The notes under the pieces: model-generated | The model's database searches: none | What the model saw: the letters and a program-made list of their open reading frames with translations, nothing else | What the model was told of the DNA's origin: nothing | Program-made: the position numbers and the translations under genes | From: a virus | Lineage: Duplodnaviria > Heunggongvirae > Uroviricota > Caudoviricetes | IMG/VR virus record: IMGVR_UViG_2681813004_000015 | Coordinates: 1-11,936 of that record | Reading direction: 5' to 3' (one strand) | DNA length: 11,936 nt | Part shown: in pieces, positions 1,032 to 11,936 of the stretch | Numbering within the stretch: position 1 is the first letter of the stretch | Layout: every line of letters begins with the position of its first letter

Positions 1032-1514
1032 ATGTCAGGACCCCCGAAAACCCCGCCACGCCTGCATTTGATACGAGGCAACCCCTCAAAGCGCCCCGTT
1101 AAAGACCCCAAAAAAACCGCTAAAAAGGATGAAAAAGGTCTTCCTAAAATTCCGCAGCATTTAGGGGCACAGGGGAAGTACTGGTTCAGGCGAATGGCGG
1201 AAGAGCTGAATGCGGAAGGGATCATTTCTCAGCTTGATGCGCGTGCGCTCGAGTTACTGGTGGAAGCCTACACCGAATATCGGCATCACTGCGAAACACT
1301 GGATGTTGAGGGGTATACCTATCGCACGGAAACGCAGAGTGGTGATGTACTGATTAAGGCGCACCCCGCGGCGGCAATGAAAGCGGATGCCTGGAAGCGG
1401 ATCCGGGCGATGCTTGCAGAGTTTGGTATGTCACCGGCAAGCCGGGCGAAAGTAAATACCACCGGACCGGATGATGTTGATCCGCTGGCGGAGCTTTTAA
1501 AAGCGAGAGACTGA
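1032..1514 (+). CDS. terS: terminase small subunit (P27-family-like)
   Basis: 160-aa product with basic N-terminus and the conserved middle region of P27-type small terminases. Stop overlaps the terL start (TGATG, 1512-1516), indicating translational coupling. Confidence 0.8.
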   Translation: MSGPPKTPPRLHLIRGNPSKRPVKDPKKTAKKDEKGLPKIPQHLGAQGKYWFRRMAEELNAEGIISQLDARALELLVEAYTEYRHHCETLDVEGYTYRTETQSGDVLIKAHPAAAMKADAWKRIRAMLAEFGMSPASRAKVNTTGPDDVDPLAELLKARD

Positions 1515-2707
1515 TGGCAAAAGTGGCTGACGGGATCCGCTACGCCGAACGTGTTGTTGCAGGAGAAATTGTCGCTGGCGAATTTGTCCGTCTGGCCTGC
1601 CAGCGTTTTCTTGATGATCTGAAGTACGGCGAAGAGCGGGGGATTTATTTCAGTGAACCCCGTGCGCAGCACATCCTGAATTTCTACAAATTTGTGCCCC
1701 ATGTAAAAGGGGCGCTGGCAGGTCAGCCCATTGAGTTGATGGACTGGCATGTTTTTATCCTCATAAATATTTTTGGTTTTGTCATTCCGCTGGTGAATGA
1801 AGAGACCGGGGAAGTTGTCATGCGCAGCGATGGCAGCGGACGCCCGGTGATGGTGCGCCGGTTCCGGACGGCGTACAACGAAGTCGCCCGTAAAAACGCA
1901 AAATCAACCCTGTCATCGGGTATCGGTCTTTATATGACGGGGGCAGATGGTGAAGGCGGTGCTGAGGTGTATTCAGCCGCAACCACGCGTGACCAGGCCA
2001 GAATCGTGTTTGAAGACGCCAAAAATATGGTCAGAAAAGCCCGGTCGACACTCGGGCGGTTGTTTGATTTCAACAAGCTGGCGATTTACCAGGAGCAGAG
2101 CGCATCAAAATTTGAACCGCTTTCCTCGGATGCAAACAACCTGGACGGTCTGAACATCCACTGCGCCATTATTGATGAGCTGCATGCACATAAAACCCGC
2201 GACGTGTGGGACGTTCTGGAAACGGCAACCGGTGCCCGTCTGCAGTCCCTGTTATTTGGTATCACCACGGCGGGCTTTAACAAGGAAGGAATTTGTTACG
2301 AGCAACGCGATTACGCCATCAAGGTATTGCGAGGCTATAACAGTGACGTGGAGGGCGCGGTAAAAGACGACTCCTACTTTGCGATTATTTACACGCTCGA
2401 TGAGGGAGATGATCCGTTTGATGAAACGGTCTGGCAGAAAGCGAATCCGGGCCTGGGCATCTGTAAACGCTGGGATGATCTGCGTCGTCTGGCGAAAAAA
2501 GCGAAGGAACAGGTTTCAGCGCGGGTGAATTTTTTTACCAAGAAAGTAACATCACGCCGTAACAACAGTGCGACCTGTCCTGATTTTTTTAGTAACCAAA
2601 TGAAAGAAAAAGATTTTTTCTTGTTCGTCGTTTTTGTTTTTTCTGGAAGGTTCTGGCTGTTTTCATCATTTGTGTATTGCACTGTGTATTGCAAAAACGG
2701 GTTATAA
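1514..2707 (+). pseudogene. terL: terminase large subunit, 3'-truncated: ATPase domain only, terminase-like to about nt 2545
   Basis: N-terminal ~345 aa read as an HK97-family TerL ATPase domain. After ...ARVNFFTKK the frame runs through T-rich low-complexity codons (FFLFVVFVF...) into the int upstream region. No nuclease domain is present. Confidence 0.8.
2671..2693. repeat. two direct copies of TGTGTATTGCA separated by 1 nt, 20 bp upstream of int
   Basis: Exact 11-mer at 2671-2681 and 2683-2693. Lies in the AT-rich segment between the terL break and int, next to a short palindrome GAAAAAGATTTTTC at ~2607-2620. Candidate integrase arm-type or regulatory sites. Confidence 0.4.
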
Positions 2708-2712
2708 ATCAC

Positions 2713-3921
2713 ATGGCGCTAAACAAACTGAGCGATAAAAAACTTCGTTCCCTGCTTGGGCGCAGGAGTGAGAGGCAGGAAACCATCGCTGATGGTAACG
2801 GGCTTTCGGTACGGGTCAGTAAATACGGATGTGTTAGTTTTGTTTTCTTTTACAGACTGGCGGGAAGGGGAACCGCGCCCATCTGGCTGACACTTGGAAA
2901 ATATCCTGATCTGAGTCTCAAATCAGCGAGAGAGATGCGCGATCAGTGTCGAACCTGGCTTGCGGAGGGCAGAGATCCACGGATTCAGATAAAAATTGAA
3001 CGGGAAGCCACTTTGCAACCTGTTACCGTTCGTGAGGCACTTGAATACTGGCTTGATAATTATGCAATGGATAAGCGTAGGGGAGCAGAACATATCAGGC
3101 AGTGCTTTGGTAAACATATTTATCCGGTGATTGGTCATGTACCACTTAGTGATTGCTCTATATCTATGTGGATCAAGTGTTTTGACAAAATAAAAAAAGT
3201 AGCACCTGTACAGGCCGGAGCTTTGTTGCGTATATCAAAACAGGCGCTTAAATTTTGTAGGGTAAGAAAATACGCGATTAGTCATGAAATTGATGATCTT
3301 GAGGTCTGTGATGTGGGAAAAAAGTCTGCGCGAAGAAGCAGGGTTTTAACAGATGATGAAATCAGAGATTTATGGCGAAGTATTAATACTGATTATGACA
3401 ATCACGAATTATCATATGAAAACCGAATTATTTTACGTTTCCTGGTAGTTTTTGGTTGTCGACTGTCAGAAGTATTACTGTCGTCCTGGGTAGAGTGGGA
3501 TTTTGATAAGAAATTATGGCGCGTTCCCGCTGATCATAGCAAAAATGGCAGGGAAATAATCAGACCGATTCCTGATGGCATGTTTAACTGGTTAGTTACG
3601 TTAAAAAAAATAACAGGTAACAAAGAAAATGTGATTGGGTTTGATATGCGTCAGTGTACGGCAAGCGTAACTATCGGTAAGACATGGAAAAGGATGAAAC
3701 ACTCGGAAAAATGGACGGCGCATGATATGCGAAGAGTGTTTGCCACAAAGCTAAGTGATCATGGTTTTGAACATAATGTGGTTGAACAGTTGCTTGGGCA
3801 CACATTAGGCGGTGTTGCCGGGGTTTATAACAGAAGTCAGTATATGGACAGAAAAAAAGAAGCTATGAACTGGTGGTACGACTATCTGAATAAGCTAATT
3901 AGTGGTGACGGTAATGATTGA
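2713..3921 (+). CDS. int: tyrosine integrase, P4-integrase family
   Basis: N-terminal arm-binding domain pattern (GLSVRVSKYG...FVFFYRL...LTLGKYPDLSLKSAREMR) and C-terminal catalytic residues (R...HDMRR...LLGH...Y). ATG at 2713 (MALNKLSD) preferred over the upstream ATG at 2677. Confidence 0.92.
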   Translation: MALNKLSDKKLRSLLGRRSERQETIADGNGLSVRVSKYGCVSFVFFYRLAGRGTAPIWLTLGKYPDLSLKSAREMRDQCRTWLAEGRDPRIQIKIEREATLQPVTVREALEYWLDNYAMDKRRGAEHIRQCFGKHIYPVIGHVPLSDCSISMWIKCFDKIKKVAPVQAGALLRISKQALKFCRVRKYAISHEIDDLEVCDVGKKSARRSRVLTDDEIRDLWRSINTDYDNHELSYENRIILRFLVVFGCRLSEVLLSSWVEWDFDKKLWRVPADHSKNGREIIRPIPDGMFNWLVTLKKITGNKENVIGFDMRQCTASVTIGKTWKRMKHSEKWTAHDMRRVFATKLSDHGFEHNVVEQLLGHTLGGVAGVYNRSQYMDRKKEAMNWWYDYLNKLISGDGND

Positions 3922-6248: not shown

Positions 6249-6453
6249 TCTGTCACTTACCGACCTTAACCGCATTCAGTTTCGTGAGAAATTTACCGGG
6301 CAGCTACTGGTCAATGTGGATAAAGGTCGCGTGGTGTGTAATTACCACCTGCCAGATGAAGCAATTGTCGCAACAAGGGAATCATTACAGGAACTCGCAG
6401 AACGTGCCGGAATGATTAATGCGAATATTCAGGGGGTGAGCCATGTGCAATAA
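6241..6453 (+). CDS. hypothetical small protein (70 aa)
   Basis: AGGAGG RBS immediately upstream of ATG 6241; overlaps the previous ORF by 8 nt and the next by 11 nt, indicating coupling. Confidence 0.55.
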   Translation: MINLSLTDLNRIQFREKFTGQLLVNVDKGRVVCNYHLPDEAIVATRESLQELAERAGMINANIQGVSHVQ

Positions 6454-6772
6454 CACCCGTCCGGACGCAGCCGCCGAAGCTATCAGAACGCTGATGCACG
6501 CGCTGATTGATATTTCATGCACGGCAGCAACCGCAGAAAAACACATTACCAGAGAGACCGAAGCTATCAGAACGCTGATGCACGCGCTGATTGATATTTC
6601 ATGCACGGCAGCAACCGCAGAAAAACACATTACCAGAGAGACGGAATATACAGGGGCAATAATCCCGCATTCGCTGGTCTACACACAGCTTACCGCTGAT
6701 ATGGCGCTGAATGAGGCTAAAGCCATCCTGATTGCTGATTGTGAAAATGGCGGGGGCGATTATGCGAAATAA
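6443..6772 (+). CDS. hypothetical protein (109 aa) containing a 28-residue exact tandem repeat
   Basis: GGGGTGA RBS upstream of ATG 6443. Residues EAIRTLMHALIDISCTAATAEKHITRET occur twice in tandem, encoded by an 84-bp direct repeat. Confidence 0.55.
   Translation: MCNNTRPDAAAEAIRTLMHALIDISCTAATAEKHITRETEAIRTLMHALIDISCTAATAEKHITRETEYTGAIIPHSLVYTQLTADMALNEAKAILIADCENGGGDYAK
6476..6643 (+). repeat. 84-bp tandem direct repeat, two copies, in-frame within a small ORF
   Basis: 6476-6559 and 6560-6643 are identical except for the final base (83/84). Confidence 0.95.
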
Positions 6773-9631: not shown

Positions 9632-10057
9632 ATGACAGCACAGATAGCGGCTTACGGGCGGCTGGTGGCTGACCCGCAGTTAAAGACCACCAGCAAAGGG
9701 ACACAAATGGCGATGGCGAGTATGGCGGTTCCCCTGCCGTGCAGCCAGGCAGATGACGGAACGGCGACGATGTGGTTATCCGTCCTGGCGTTTGGCAGAC
9801 AGGCCGACGCACTGGCCAGACACCACAAAGGCGAACTGGTGAGCGTGGCGGGTAACATGCAGGTAAGCCAGTGGACAGGCCAGAACGGCGAAACGCGGCA
9901 GGGCTGGCAGGTCATCGCAGACAGCGTAATCAGTGCGCGGACAGTGCGACCGGGCGGCAAAAAAGGCCAGCAGGGCCAGGCTACTGACGCACTGAACAGG
10001 GCAAAACAACAGACAGGCCAGCACGATGATCCGTACGGGGACGGGATACCGTTTTAA
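9632..10057 (+). CDS. ssb: single-stranded DNA-binding protein (short phage/plasmid-type SSB)
   Basis: OB-fold pattern parallels E. coli SSB (GRLVADPQLK..., WLSVLAFGRQADALARHHKGELVSVAGNMQVSQWTGQNGETRQGWQV), a G/Q-rich linker, and C-terminal tail ...DDPYGDGIPF resembling the canonical DDDIPF tip. Confidence 0.82.
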   Translation: MTAQIAAYGRLVADPQLKTTSKGTQMAMASMAVPLPCSQADDGTATMWLSVLAFGRQADALARHHKGELVSVAGNMQVSQWTGQNGETRQGWQVIADSVISARTVRPGGKKGQQGQATDALNRAKQQTGQHDDPYGDGIPF

Positions 10058-10072
10058 GCAGTGAGGTACAGC

Positions 10073-10354
10073 ATGATTAAAGACAGCAAAGCGGAAGAAC
10101 TGGAGGCTAAAGGGCTGTACCGGAGAGCGGCGGCACGTTGGGCTGATGTTATGTGGCTGGTGAGCACTGACAAGGAGCGCGAACAAGTGGCAAAGCGTCG
10201 CGCGGAATGTATCCGTAAGGCAGCGCGCCAACCAGTCATACCGGATAATTTCGGAATACTGAAAGAGGCCATAAACCGCACACATACCGGGATGGGCTTA
10301 CAGAAACCTGGCGGTGAGATGTTCAGGAACTACCCGAAAAAAAGGGATAATTGA
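10073..10354 (+). CDS. perC: PerC-family transcriptional regulator (Pch-like)
   Basis: N-terminus MIKDSKAEELEAKGLYRRAAARWADVM... matches the PerC/Pch signature. GAGG RBS 6 nt upstream of ATG 10073; the track start at 10061 is GTG. Confidence 0.75.
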   Translation: MIKDSKAEELEAKGLYRRAAARWADVMWLVSTDKEREQVAKRRAECIRKAARQPVIPDNFGILKEAINRTHTGMGLQKPGGEMFRNYPKKRDN

Positions 10355-10399
10355 TAACGGTTGTTAACTGTTTCTGGTATCGTGGCAGCAGGAGGAAAC

Positions 10400-10648
10400 A
10401 TGCCAGTGACATTTGAAGAAGTCCAGCAACATAAAAAGTTTCATGGTTTTGATGATCTGGAAACCACGACAGCAAAAAAATATCGCCGTCTGCTTTCTTC
10501 CGATGCGTTGTTTGTTGTGGATCATCATGATTTTCTGCGCAGCTCACTGACCGGGGAAATTTTCGCAACCAACCGTGAGCAGGTGGAAGCGATGATCGAA
10601 TATCTGTGGAAAATAAGGCGCAGAATGCGTGATCCCGTGAAACGGTAG
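10400..10648 (+). CDS. hypothetical small protein (82 aa) downstream of perC
   Basis: Strong AGGAGG RBS 3 nt upstream of ATG 10400; followed by a strong terminator. A second near-identical copy lies at 11165-11413. Confidence 0.6.
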   Translation: MPVTFEEVQQHKKFHGFDDLETTTAKKYRRLLSSDALFVVDHHDFLRSSLTGEIFATNREQVEAMIEYLWKIRRRMRDPVKR

Positions 10649-10652
10649 AATA

Positions 10653-10687
10653 ATAATGGCCTGGTATTTTCCAGGCCATTATTTTTA
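10653..10687. terminator. strong bidirectional intrinsic terminator
   Basis: Perfect 10-bp stem AATGGCCTGG / CCAGGCCATT (10655-10664 / 10671-10680), loop TATTTT, T-run downstream and A-rich tract upstream. Confidence 0.75.
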
Positions 10688-10735
10688 GAAGTGTTGCTGA
10701 ATGAACATTGCTTTTTTCAGTTCATTTTCTGACAT
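10685..10735 (-). pseudogene. remnant of the 157-aa minus-strand gene: first 14 codons only, then deletion junction
   Basis: 10693-10749 matches 11880-11936, which holds the RBS and first codons (MSENELKKAMFIQQ) of the intact gene at 11449-11922. Here the frame ends after 16 codons at the junction with the terminator. Confidence 0.7.
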
Positions 10736-10809
10736 AGTTCGTTCCTCCTGATTAACGAGCAGAAAATGTACGGAACAGCTTATTTATTTTTTCAGGTTTT
10801 GTAAATTAT

Positions 10810-10839
10810 TTGTTCGTGGTTGTTCCAGGTTGTTCACTG
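10810..10839. repeat. three helically phased TTGTTC repeats (10-bp period)
   Basis: TTGTTCGTGG / TTGTTCCAGG / TTGTTCACTG at 10810, 10820 and 10830. On the minus strand they sit just upstream of a TTTACA -35-like hexamer in the leader of the 157-aa gene. Confidence 0.45.
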
Positions 10840-10896
10840 AGCGGATCGGCATATTTTACCCGAACTGAATCATGATTATTCTCGCCCGTGGTGCCA

Positions 10897-11119
10897 GGAC
10901 GTTTGGGCTGATGTTATGTGGCTGGTGAGCACTGACAAGGAGCGCGAACAAGTGGCAAAGCGTCGCGCGGAATGTATCCGTAAGGCAGCACGCCCACCAG
11001 TCATACCGGATAATTTCGGAATACTGAAAGAGGCCATAAACCGCACACATACCGGGATGGGCTTACAGAAACCTGGCGGTGAGATGTTCAGGAACTACCC
11101 GAAAAAAAGGGATAATTGA
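10897..11119 (+). pseudogene. 5'-truncated second copy of perC (lacks first ~21 codons, RBS and start)
   Basis: Homology to perC begins at the codon for ARWADVM. Upstream is unrelated sequence with a 1-nt insertion at the junction. Longest ORF is the internal-Met fragment 10916-11119, which carries one substitution versus copy A (Q to P). Confidence 0.7.
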
Positions 11120-11164
11120 TAACGGTTGTTAACTGTTTCTGGTATCGTGGCAGCAGGAGGAAAC

Positions 11165-11413
11165 ATGCCAGTGACATTTGAAGAAGTCCAGCAACATAAA
11201 AAGTTTCATGGTTTTGATGATCTGGAAACCACGACAGCAAAAAAATATCGCCGTCTGCTTTCTTCCGATGCGTTGTTTGTTGTGGATCATAATGATTTTC
11301 TGCGCAGCTCACTGACCGGGGAAATTTTCGCAACCAACCGTGAGCAGGTGGAAGCGATGATCGAATATCTGTGGAAAATAAGGCGCAGAATGCGTGATCC
11401 CGTGAAACGGTAG
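11165..11413 (+). CDS. hypothetical small protein (82 aa), second copy
   Basis: Same RBS and ORF as 10400-10648 with one amino-acid difference (H to N). Confidence 0.6.
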   Translation: MPVTFEEVQQHKKFHGFDDLETTTAKKYRRLLSSDALFVVDHNDFLRSSLTGEIFATNREQVEAMIEYLWKIRRRMRDPVKR

Positions 11414-11417
11414 AATA

Positions 11418-11451
11418 ATAATGGCCTGGTATTTTCCAGGCCATTTTTTTA
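11418..11451. terminator. strong bidirectional intrinsic terminator, second copy
   Basis: Stem AATGGCCTGG / CCAGGCCATT (11420-11429 / 11436-11445), loop TATTTT, T-run 11444-11450. Serves the converging genes on both strands. Confidence 0.75.
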
Positions 11452-11922
11452 GAAGTCGATCTCTGTATCGCGATTAAATTCATCGCTAAGGTAAAGTGCT
11501 TCGCTTGGGCATTTTCCGTTTTCCAGTAATGTTTCCCAGAAATCTTTATCGAAACACCCCTCAAGATACAGATAGCGGCAGATGTGAAGTAAATCACTTC
11601 GTGTCCATCCGTGCATGCTGCTACTTGTTACACCATATTCACTTTCTAGTTTATAGAATGTGAGCGCCTCCCGGTCATGCCAGGCTTTGCACAGACGATC
11701 GTATATCTTTTTAGCTTTGTTTTTAGATGTGCCGAAAAACTCTTCGTAAATTTCATGTGGGCGAGTAGGAATGCTTCCGTCGCCATCCTGCAAGAAAGGA
11801 TAAACATCTGCCTCCCAGGCATACACGTAAGAATCGCTGAACTCATCATAGTGTTTACCAAGGTGGAGAATCTGCAATCGTTGCTGAATGAACATTGCTT
11901 TTTTCAGTTCATTTTCTGACAT
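11449..11922 (-). CDS. hypothetical acidic, aromatic-rich protein (157 aa), function unknown
   Basis: Minus-strand ORF with AGGAGG RBS (plus 11931-11936) 8 nt upstream of ATG (11922). Converges on the bidirectional terminator. Rich in D/E and Y/F/W. No family recognised by eye. Confidence 0.7.
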   Translation of the reverse strand: MSENELKKAMFIQQRLQILHLGKHYDEFSDSYVYAWEADVYPFLQDGDGSIPTRPHEIYEEFFGTSKNKAKKIYDRLCKAWHDREALTFYKLESEYGVTSSSMHGWTRSDLLHICRYLYLEGCFDKDFWETLLENGKCPSEALYLSDEFNRDTEIDF

Positions 11923-11936
11923 AGTTCGTTCCTCCT

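Follow-up and report, generated by a model that had tools for sequence, protein, structure and literature searches.

Tandem duplications in bacteria can form via microhomology, by illegitimate and RecA-independent recombination, and hetero-allelic merodiploids can form via unequal or single-crossover exchange. Among phage satellites, the cf-PICIs possess variable regions that flank the packaging module immediately on both sides and are expected to bear immune systems (10.1101/2025.02.11.637232). The cf-PICIs measure about 10-18 kb and contain neither lysis nor tail genes. PerC-like genes are reported to be common in the PICIs of E. coli; the PerC homologue of EcCIMP1 represses LEE1, whereas the homologues of EcCIEDL933 and EcCICFT073 are without effect (PMC11773190). 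We analyzed a window of 11,936 bp, which is the entire contig AOTC01000161.1 of the draft assembly GCA_001447405.1 (more than 160 contigs), and which carries a partial tandem repeat of a perC-containing module. We give an even chance to the view that this repeat is a real partial tandem duplication whose two units are different natural alleles of one module, forming a hetero-allelic array.

The window contains prophage HNH, TerS and truncated TerL genes, followed by the integrase gene (2677/2713-3921; PF00589 and PF13356) of an element that lies in the prophage terL, as in E. coli ETEC1749. The order continues with two AlpA-family genes, Bro-N and small ORFs, and then DUF4222, a DUF927 primase, SSB, PerC and a conserved 82-aa gene. 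The element therefore has the integrase at one end that characterizes cf-PICIs, and their regulation and replication modules are represented by the two PF05930 AlpA genes, DUF4222, the DUF927 primase and SSB. ETEC1749 harbors this backbone at 96-98% identity and at the same insertion place, the prophage terL; there, a single perC-orf82-157 module is followed by an HK97-type capsid, protease, portal, connector, HNH, TerS and TerL. The packaging operon lies directly downstream of the perC-orf82 module in all relatives examined, whose elements are ~15 kb, and our contig ends before it, at 11936. The gene order of these relatives places the repeat where the replication/regulation half meets the packaging operon. 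Judged by gene content, the locus is the putative regulatory/cargo junction of a capsid-forming PICI-type satellite in a prophage terL; because the packaging half is off this contig, we infer the completeness of the element from its relatives.

Between a terminator hairpin and a conserved 49-bp block, related islands contain a 157-aa gene, an unrelated 168-aa gene or nothing, depending on the island. From these comparisons, the slot ahead of the packaging operon behaves as a cargo hotspot, matching the cf-PICI variable region (10.1101/2025.02.11.637232). The 168-aa alternative cargo was considered as a diverged homologue of the 157-aa protein, and this was rejected because the two have zero similarity. 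The 157-aa protein gave zero matches in Pfam, PHROG, PADLOC, NCBIfam and PDB, and neither a match to a known defence family nor a conserved defence neighbourhood was found that would mark its gene as an anti-phage defence gene. A protein search identified 19 length-conserved homologues of about 52-63% identity, and a genome scan identified stand-alone relatives of 42-61% identity, including in Vibrio, Shewanella and Citrobacter. The predicted structure is all-helical and confident (pLDDT 90). A probe spanning both ends of the gene matched 10 of the 5,426 complete E. coli genomes. The protein identical to that of the window, WP_001293446.1, is widespread, with a single-copy layout in 10/10 long contigs. 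The 157-aa protein is a genuine, length-conserved orphan, and its gene is conserved orphan cargo in a defined hotspot.

The repeat comprises two head-to-tail units with a single novel join, as in a tandem segmental duplication. The core of unit A (10135-10692) extends from perC codon 21 to the end of that gene and through orf82 and a terminator hairpin, and it aligns with the core of unit B (10899-11456) over ~558 bp with three substitutions and two one-base indels. The aligned blocks are 10135-10137 with 10899-10901, 10138-10680 with 10903-11445, and 10682-10692 with 11446-11456. The substitutions (unit A/unit B) are G/A at 10225, A/C at 10230 and C/A at 10526; the indels are an extra T in unit B at the junction and an extra A in unit A at 10681, in the terminator tail. 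Unit A is followed by a segment, R2 (10693-10901), that contains the 5' end of the cargo gene, its RBS and the first ~150 bp of the capsid-operon upstream spacer. R2 is of the LH50c, or deletion-allele, type: positions 10693-10898 are 100% identical to the related loci L004 and L005 and 99% identical to L002 and L010. Within it lies the conserved 49-bp block (10787-10835), in which the motif GGTTGTTC occurs twice. A second R2 copy starts at 11880 and is broken off by the contig end at 11936; its bases are identical to 10693-10749 (57/57). The full repeat unit would be 1,188 bp (765 + 423). The length and identity of the repeat rule out chance, confirming that it is real in the sequence, and the segments given in the original prediction (10134-10692 with 10897-11456, and 10693-10749 with 11880-11936) agree with our alignment to within 1-2 nt.

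The last unique gene ahead of the repeat is ssb (9632-10057, plus strand; PF00436, E = 8.4e-16), which is also annotated as SSB in relatives. Copy A of perC (10073-10354, plus strand) encodes a full-length protein of 93 aa that matches PF06069 over profile positions 1-89 of 90 (E = 2.6e-35), scoring 121 bits against a Pfam gathering cut-off of 22.6. Copy B is 5'-truncated and begins at codon ~21; in the ORF list it is a 67-aa ORF (10916-11119, plus strand) that uses the first in-frame ATG, the internal Met27, with no recognizable RBS. The ORFs and the PF06069 matches thus bear out the earlier description of a complete perC in copy A and a perC without its first ~21 codons in copy B. A precomputed PF06069 match is listed for the copy B protein (WP_149012527.1), which is N-terminally truncated, and the 26 residues that it lacks amount to about half of the conserved core (residues 5-53) in PHROG activator families. 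The copy B fragment is probably untranslated, judging from its start region. A promoter scan of the spacer found no consensus sigma-70 site, and expression of copy B is therefore not predicted.

The second gene of the module, orf82, is intact in both units. Copy A (10400-10648, plus strand; 82 aa, His43) matches phrog_1957 (E = 1e-36), and copy B (11165-11413, plus strand) translates into 82 aa with Asn43. This is a conserved satellite gene, and the collection searched has the exact copy A protein in 872 indexed blocks. The Asn43 variant is present on 8 contigs; besides the window, the matches listed (4 places) are single-copy with a full-length perC. Each orf82 copy is followed by the same GC-rich stem-loop, at 10655-10680 in copy A, where it is common to the convergent orf82 and cargo genes, and at 11420-11445 in copy B. 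The latter is a bidirectional terminator-like hairpin with a 10-bp stem, 6 GC pairs and a T-run on both strands, and a terminator scan reports it as a terminator on both strands.

In unit B, the cargo gene is intact (11449-11922, minus strand; 157 aa), as had been proposed. Unit A retains an in-frame remnant of 16 codons (10685-10735, minus strand), translated as MSENELKKAMFIQQHF and a stop, which consists of 14 N-terminal codons, one junction codon and the last codon. The segment missing from copy A is exactly 423 bp (11457-11879), or 141 codons, in frame. The expected loss of about 423 bp was therefore exact, but what remains is a 16-codon ORF rather than 14 codons. The deletion join, AGAAGT|GTTGCT between 10692 and 10693, is blunt, with zero microhomology.

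This deletion junction exists outside the window. E. coli TUM1886 has it in a single-copy module, with 106/106 bases matched without a break; the island there encodes a RepA-type helicase, is integrated at the allE/allC locus, a different chromosomal site, and has a backbone different from that of the window. The same junction is also present in single copy in the IMG/VR element UViG_2681813004_000014. The 206 bp to the right of the junction in copy A (10693-10898) are 100% identical to those of both elements. The recurrence of the junction together with an identical flank indicates a circulating allele rather than a private event that followed the duplication, unless its carriers descend from the arrangement of the window. 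An in-frame deletion allele of the 157-aa gene is thus in circulation among different islands.

The remaining differences between the two units also have counterparts elsewhere. All four are located at sites that vary across a set of 30 or more other islands, with both states seen at each. The probability that random mutation would place four differences on polymorphic sites is about 2e-5, or ~1e-3 when the two linked sites, which lie 5 bp apart, are treated as a single event. Neither the deletion nor the substitutions are private to the array, contrary to what decay after duplication would predict, and the earlier interpretation that each copy had decayed differently does not hold, since all four differences are standing polymorphisms with both states in other islands. 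Together with the deletion junction found elsewhere, these polymorphisms make the units look like two natural alleles in tandem. In sister contigs from two other assemblies, which encode the identical primase, perC is full-length and has the copy B alleles, and the spacer type that accompanies WP_001293446.1 in the islands examined departs from that of copy A after 10835. However, both single-copy deletion alleles have A at 10526, the base found in copy B of the window. A simple two-parent haplotype model, which we tried, fits 3/4 variable sites and is discordant at 10526. The haplotype signal is therefore mosaic at this site, and such a model would need an extra conversion or a phasing error. 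The allele signal is not clean, and we do not claim a unique history.

The single novel join of the duplication (10899-10904) was placed by base-by-base comparison with the L002 spacer and with perC. It reads from the spacer, ending in CAGGACG, through TT(T) into perC codon 21. Relative to an LH50c-type spacer and perC, the spacer side is CCAGGACG and the perC side is GGGCTGATG, with TT(T) between them. The two partners have in common ACG, or an imperfect ACGyTGGG, and the join contains one extra T.

On our reading, unit A would represent perC, orf82, the circulating cargo allele with the 423-bp deletion and an LH50c-type spacer, and unit B a 5'-truncated perC, orf82 and the intact, common cargo allele. 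One illegitimate event would have joined the capsid-operon upstream spacer to perC codon 21, at the ACG microhomology and with the extra T. The most likely route may be an unequal exchange in which one module bore the deletion and the other the intact gene, either between two islands resident in one cell or within co-replicating island DNA. A duplication followed by conversion of the left unit by a deletion-bearing island would be equivalent. The sequence comparisons establish the anatomy of the repeat, its join, the prior existence of the deletion allele and the allelic character of the differences, whereas we infer the order of events and the presence of the arrangement in the cell.

Against this reading stands the possibility of an assembly artefact, which we consider doubtful, although several observations speak for it. 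The strain may have contained a pair of related satellites that differed in carrying the deleted or the intact cargo gene, and an assembler, scaffolder or gap closer may have strung the module of the second behind that of the first. The original prediction held that the array is not an assembly artefact, but its argument excludes only the collapse of identical repeats, and the whole draft contig ends 57 bp into a repeat, with an arrangement that has no independent support. An end at 57 bp inside the second R2 is a typical graph break at repeat entry, and the contigs of sister strains also break in the module, at 10445. E. coli genomes often bear several such islands, in up to 6 places per genome, and units A and B carry different natural alleles. 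In a similarity-boundary test of the ends of the large unit, the perC side fell on a boundary: copy B starts within 0-3 nt of the point at which the LH50c/GF60-type perC becomes near-identical to that of the window's island, a place at which an assembly graph would fork in a genome with two islands. The same contig also contains a second unique tandem duplication, of 84 bp, perfect and in-frame (6474-6641), whose 109-aa product, WP_072195890.1, is a singleton. In the same test, this smaller duplication had SNPs nearby, but in view of how dense SNPs are and how many loci were compared, this carries no significance.

Searches for the arrangement elsewhere are in line with an artefact as well. 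The duplication join was absent from 5,426 complete E. coli genomes, GTDB representative genomes and IMG/VR, and from JGI metagenomes searched with exact and relaxed patterns. One unit only was present in 33/33 related loci sampled, and among about 15 billion proteins the truncated PerC WP_149012527.1 occurs once, on this contig. No second assembly with the join or the truncated PerC ORF was found among these collections, which is an absence of support and not a disproof. However, the join itself is difficult to attribute to assembly, because its partners have only 3 nt in common and an extra base lies between them; with no overlap of k-mer length, a de Bruijn graph or overlap assembly needs reads that span the join. 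Moreover, the spacer side of the join (10901) is at no similarity boundary among the intergenic types sampled, and in short-read assembly spurious expansion is rarer than collapse.

The history originally proposed, in which an intact module was duplicated in tandem, copy A was then newly deleted and the copies diverged by point mutation, now appears improbable. A head-to-tail partial duplication of ~1.2 kb is what the contig most simply suggests, in agreement with the 1,188-bp unit, and the comparison with related islands that had been suggested as a check did find single-copy layouts. With 4 differences between them, cores A and B are also no further apart than either is from any haplotype sampled: copy B against the UViG allele is tied with this value, and the other comparisons give 5 or more. 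Furthermore, single-copy deletion alleles could descend from the array by recombination between the R2 copies. However, the deletion allele pre-exists, in TUM1886 and UViG_2681813004_000014, with an identical blunt junction and flanks in two elements that have different replication modules and integration sites, and both elements would have to descend from an array never observed. The 10526A of the single-copy deletion alleles is the copy B state and not the copy A state, and all four differences, including the two linked sites 5 bp apart, are pre-existing polymorphisms.

Improbable, in our estimation, is also the further idea that the array captures a passing stage in the exchange of cargo cassettes between phage satellites, in which the module of a second island would enter by one illegitimate and one homologous event to give a transient hetero-allelic tandem, and recombination in the perC-orf82 core or R2 would then restore a single copy with either the intact or the deleted cargo allele. 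If true, it would offer a direct view of turnover in the cf-PICI variable region before the packaging module, and could account for one deletion allele being shared by islands whose replication modules are unrelated.

Returning to the hetero-allelic duplication, what was found is a structural variant of an ordinary kind within a known satellite family, unconfirmed by a second source. The expected functional effect would be small; the element is predicted to retain one working perC, two intact orf82 genes and one working cargo gene. Neither a new mechanism nor a new gene function emerges from the finding. Were the array real, it would be a small example of satellites reshuffling the cargo slot ahead of the capsid operon, and it would add 765 bp to an element limited by its own small capsid. 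As WP_149012527.1 and WP_072195890.1 are singletons from one contig, caution is advisable in their annotation.

Compared with the cf-PICIs EcCIEDL933 and EcCIGN02175, the window has the matching order int, AlpA, Bro-N, small ORFs, DUF4222, primase, SSB, PerC and orf82, and its 96-98% identical relatives carry packaging genes without tail or lysis genes. In contrast, its variable region contains a partial tandem repeat, which is not described for such islands and was seen in 0/33 related loci. Like the PerC/Pch regulators of Gram-negative PICIs (EPEC PerC; EcCIMP1_025), copy A is a full-length PF06069 protein, and its gene occupies the usual place 3' of primase and ssb, whereas copy B is N-terminally truncated and its RBS is absent. 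The array also resembles microhomology-mediated duplications in its head-to-tail units, one novel join, 3 nt of microhomology and 1-nt insertion, and by analogy with known tandem duplications its long direct repeats would be expected to be unstable by homologous recombination. Unlike those duplications, however, the units of the window bear different pre-existing alleles, one deleted and one intact, as well as allelic SNPs, which points to an exchange between non-identical templates rather than to sister-strand slippage.

The cargo-gene allele with the 423-bp in-frame deletion (window 10685-10735, minus strand) also occurs in two single-copy elements, at 12001-12106 in L004 and in L005. It retains the ribosome-binding site and could give rise to a 16-aa peptide. 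The allele, with an identical blunt junction, is common to islands that carry different replication modules (DUF927 in the window, RepA in TUM1886) and that also differ in integration site, which implies that recombination between satellites spread it.

The intact gene (window 11449-11922, minus strand) encodes a conserved orphan protein of 157 aa, with homologues at loci L013-L021. Cys-Arg-Tyr, Gln-Gln-Arg and Trp residues are invariant, and the predicted model is confident and all-helical; similarity to winged-helix-type domains is weak only. In Enterobacter, Citrobacter, Vibrio, Shewanella, Oleiphilus, Kosakonia and Phytobacter, the homologues are encoded by genes that stand alone in unrelated island settings. 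A 49-bp block (window 10787-10835) sits at the right-hand edge of the cargo slot; it is conserved among islands that differ in cargo and in downstream spacer, and it contains two copies of GGTTGTTC 10 bp apart (10818 and 10828). The block may be an operator or promoter element that serves either the cargo gene or the packaging operon.

Two sister contigs whose primase is identical to that of the window, L023 and L024 (GCA_032536485.1 and GCA_032538125.1), both end at the same base, window position 10445, within orf82 and adjoining the polymorphic site 10446. This shared end suggests that these genomes, too, contain the perC-orf82 module in more than one copy. Compared with the window, both contigs carry seven SNPs clustered at 9913-9982 in ssb, a grouping that looks like a recombination tract.

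The second tandem duplication of the contig is an 84-bp unit, perfectly repeated in frame (2 x 28 codons) at window 6474-6641, inside the ORF at 6443-6772. It lengthens a satellite protein (phrog_5146) from 81 to 109 aa; relatives have a single copy of the unit, and the 109-aa protein, WP_072195890.1, is known only from this contig. Two unique tandem duplications within one 12-kb contig suggest either a shared biological cause or an assembly problem.

Exact Chi octamers (GCTGGTGG) number 12 in 12 kb, a density that looks high. Six lie on the plus strand (5276, 5502, 5534, 8243, 8305 and 9661) and six on the minus strand (350, 660, 5178, 6157, 7197 and 9687). The Chi-like sequence GCTGGTGA, matching at 7/8 positions, occurs in both repeat units, at 10156 and 10921, each time 17 bp in from the left edge.

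The satellite interrupts a prophage large-terminase gene (window 1514-2707 / 2677-3921): TerL breaks off after about 397 aa, with the integrase immediately behind it. ETEC1749 carries the same insertion, and there the rest of terL resumes beyond the island (L001 20356-21099).
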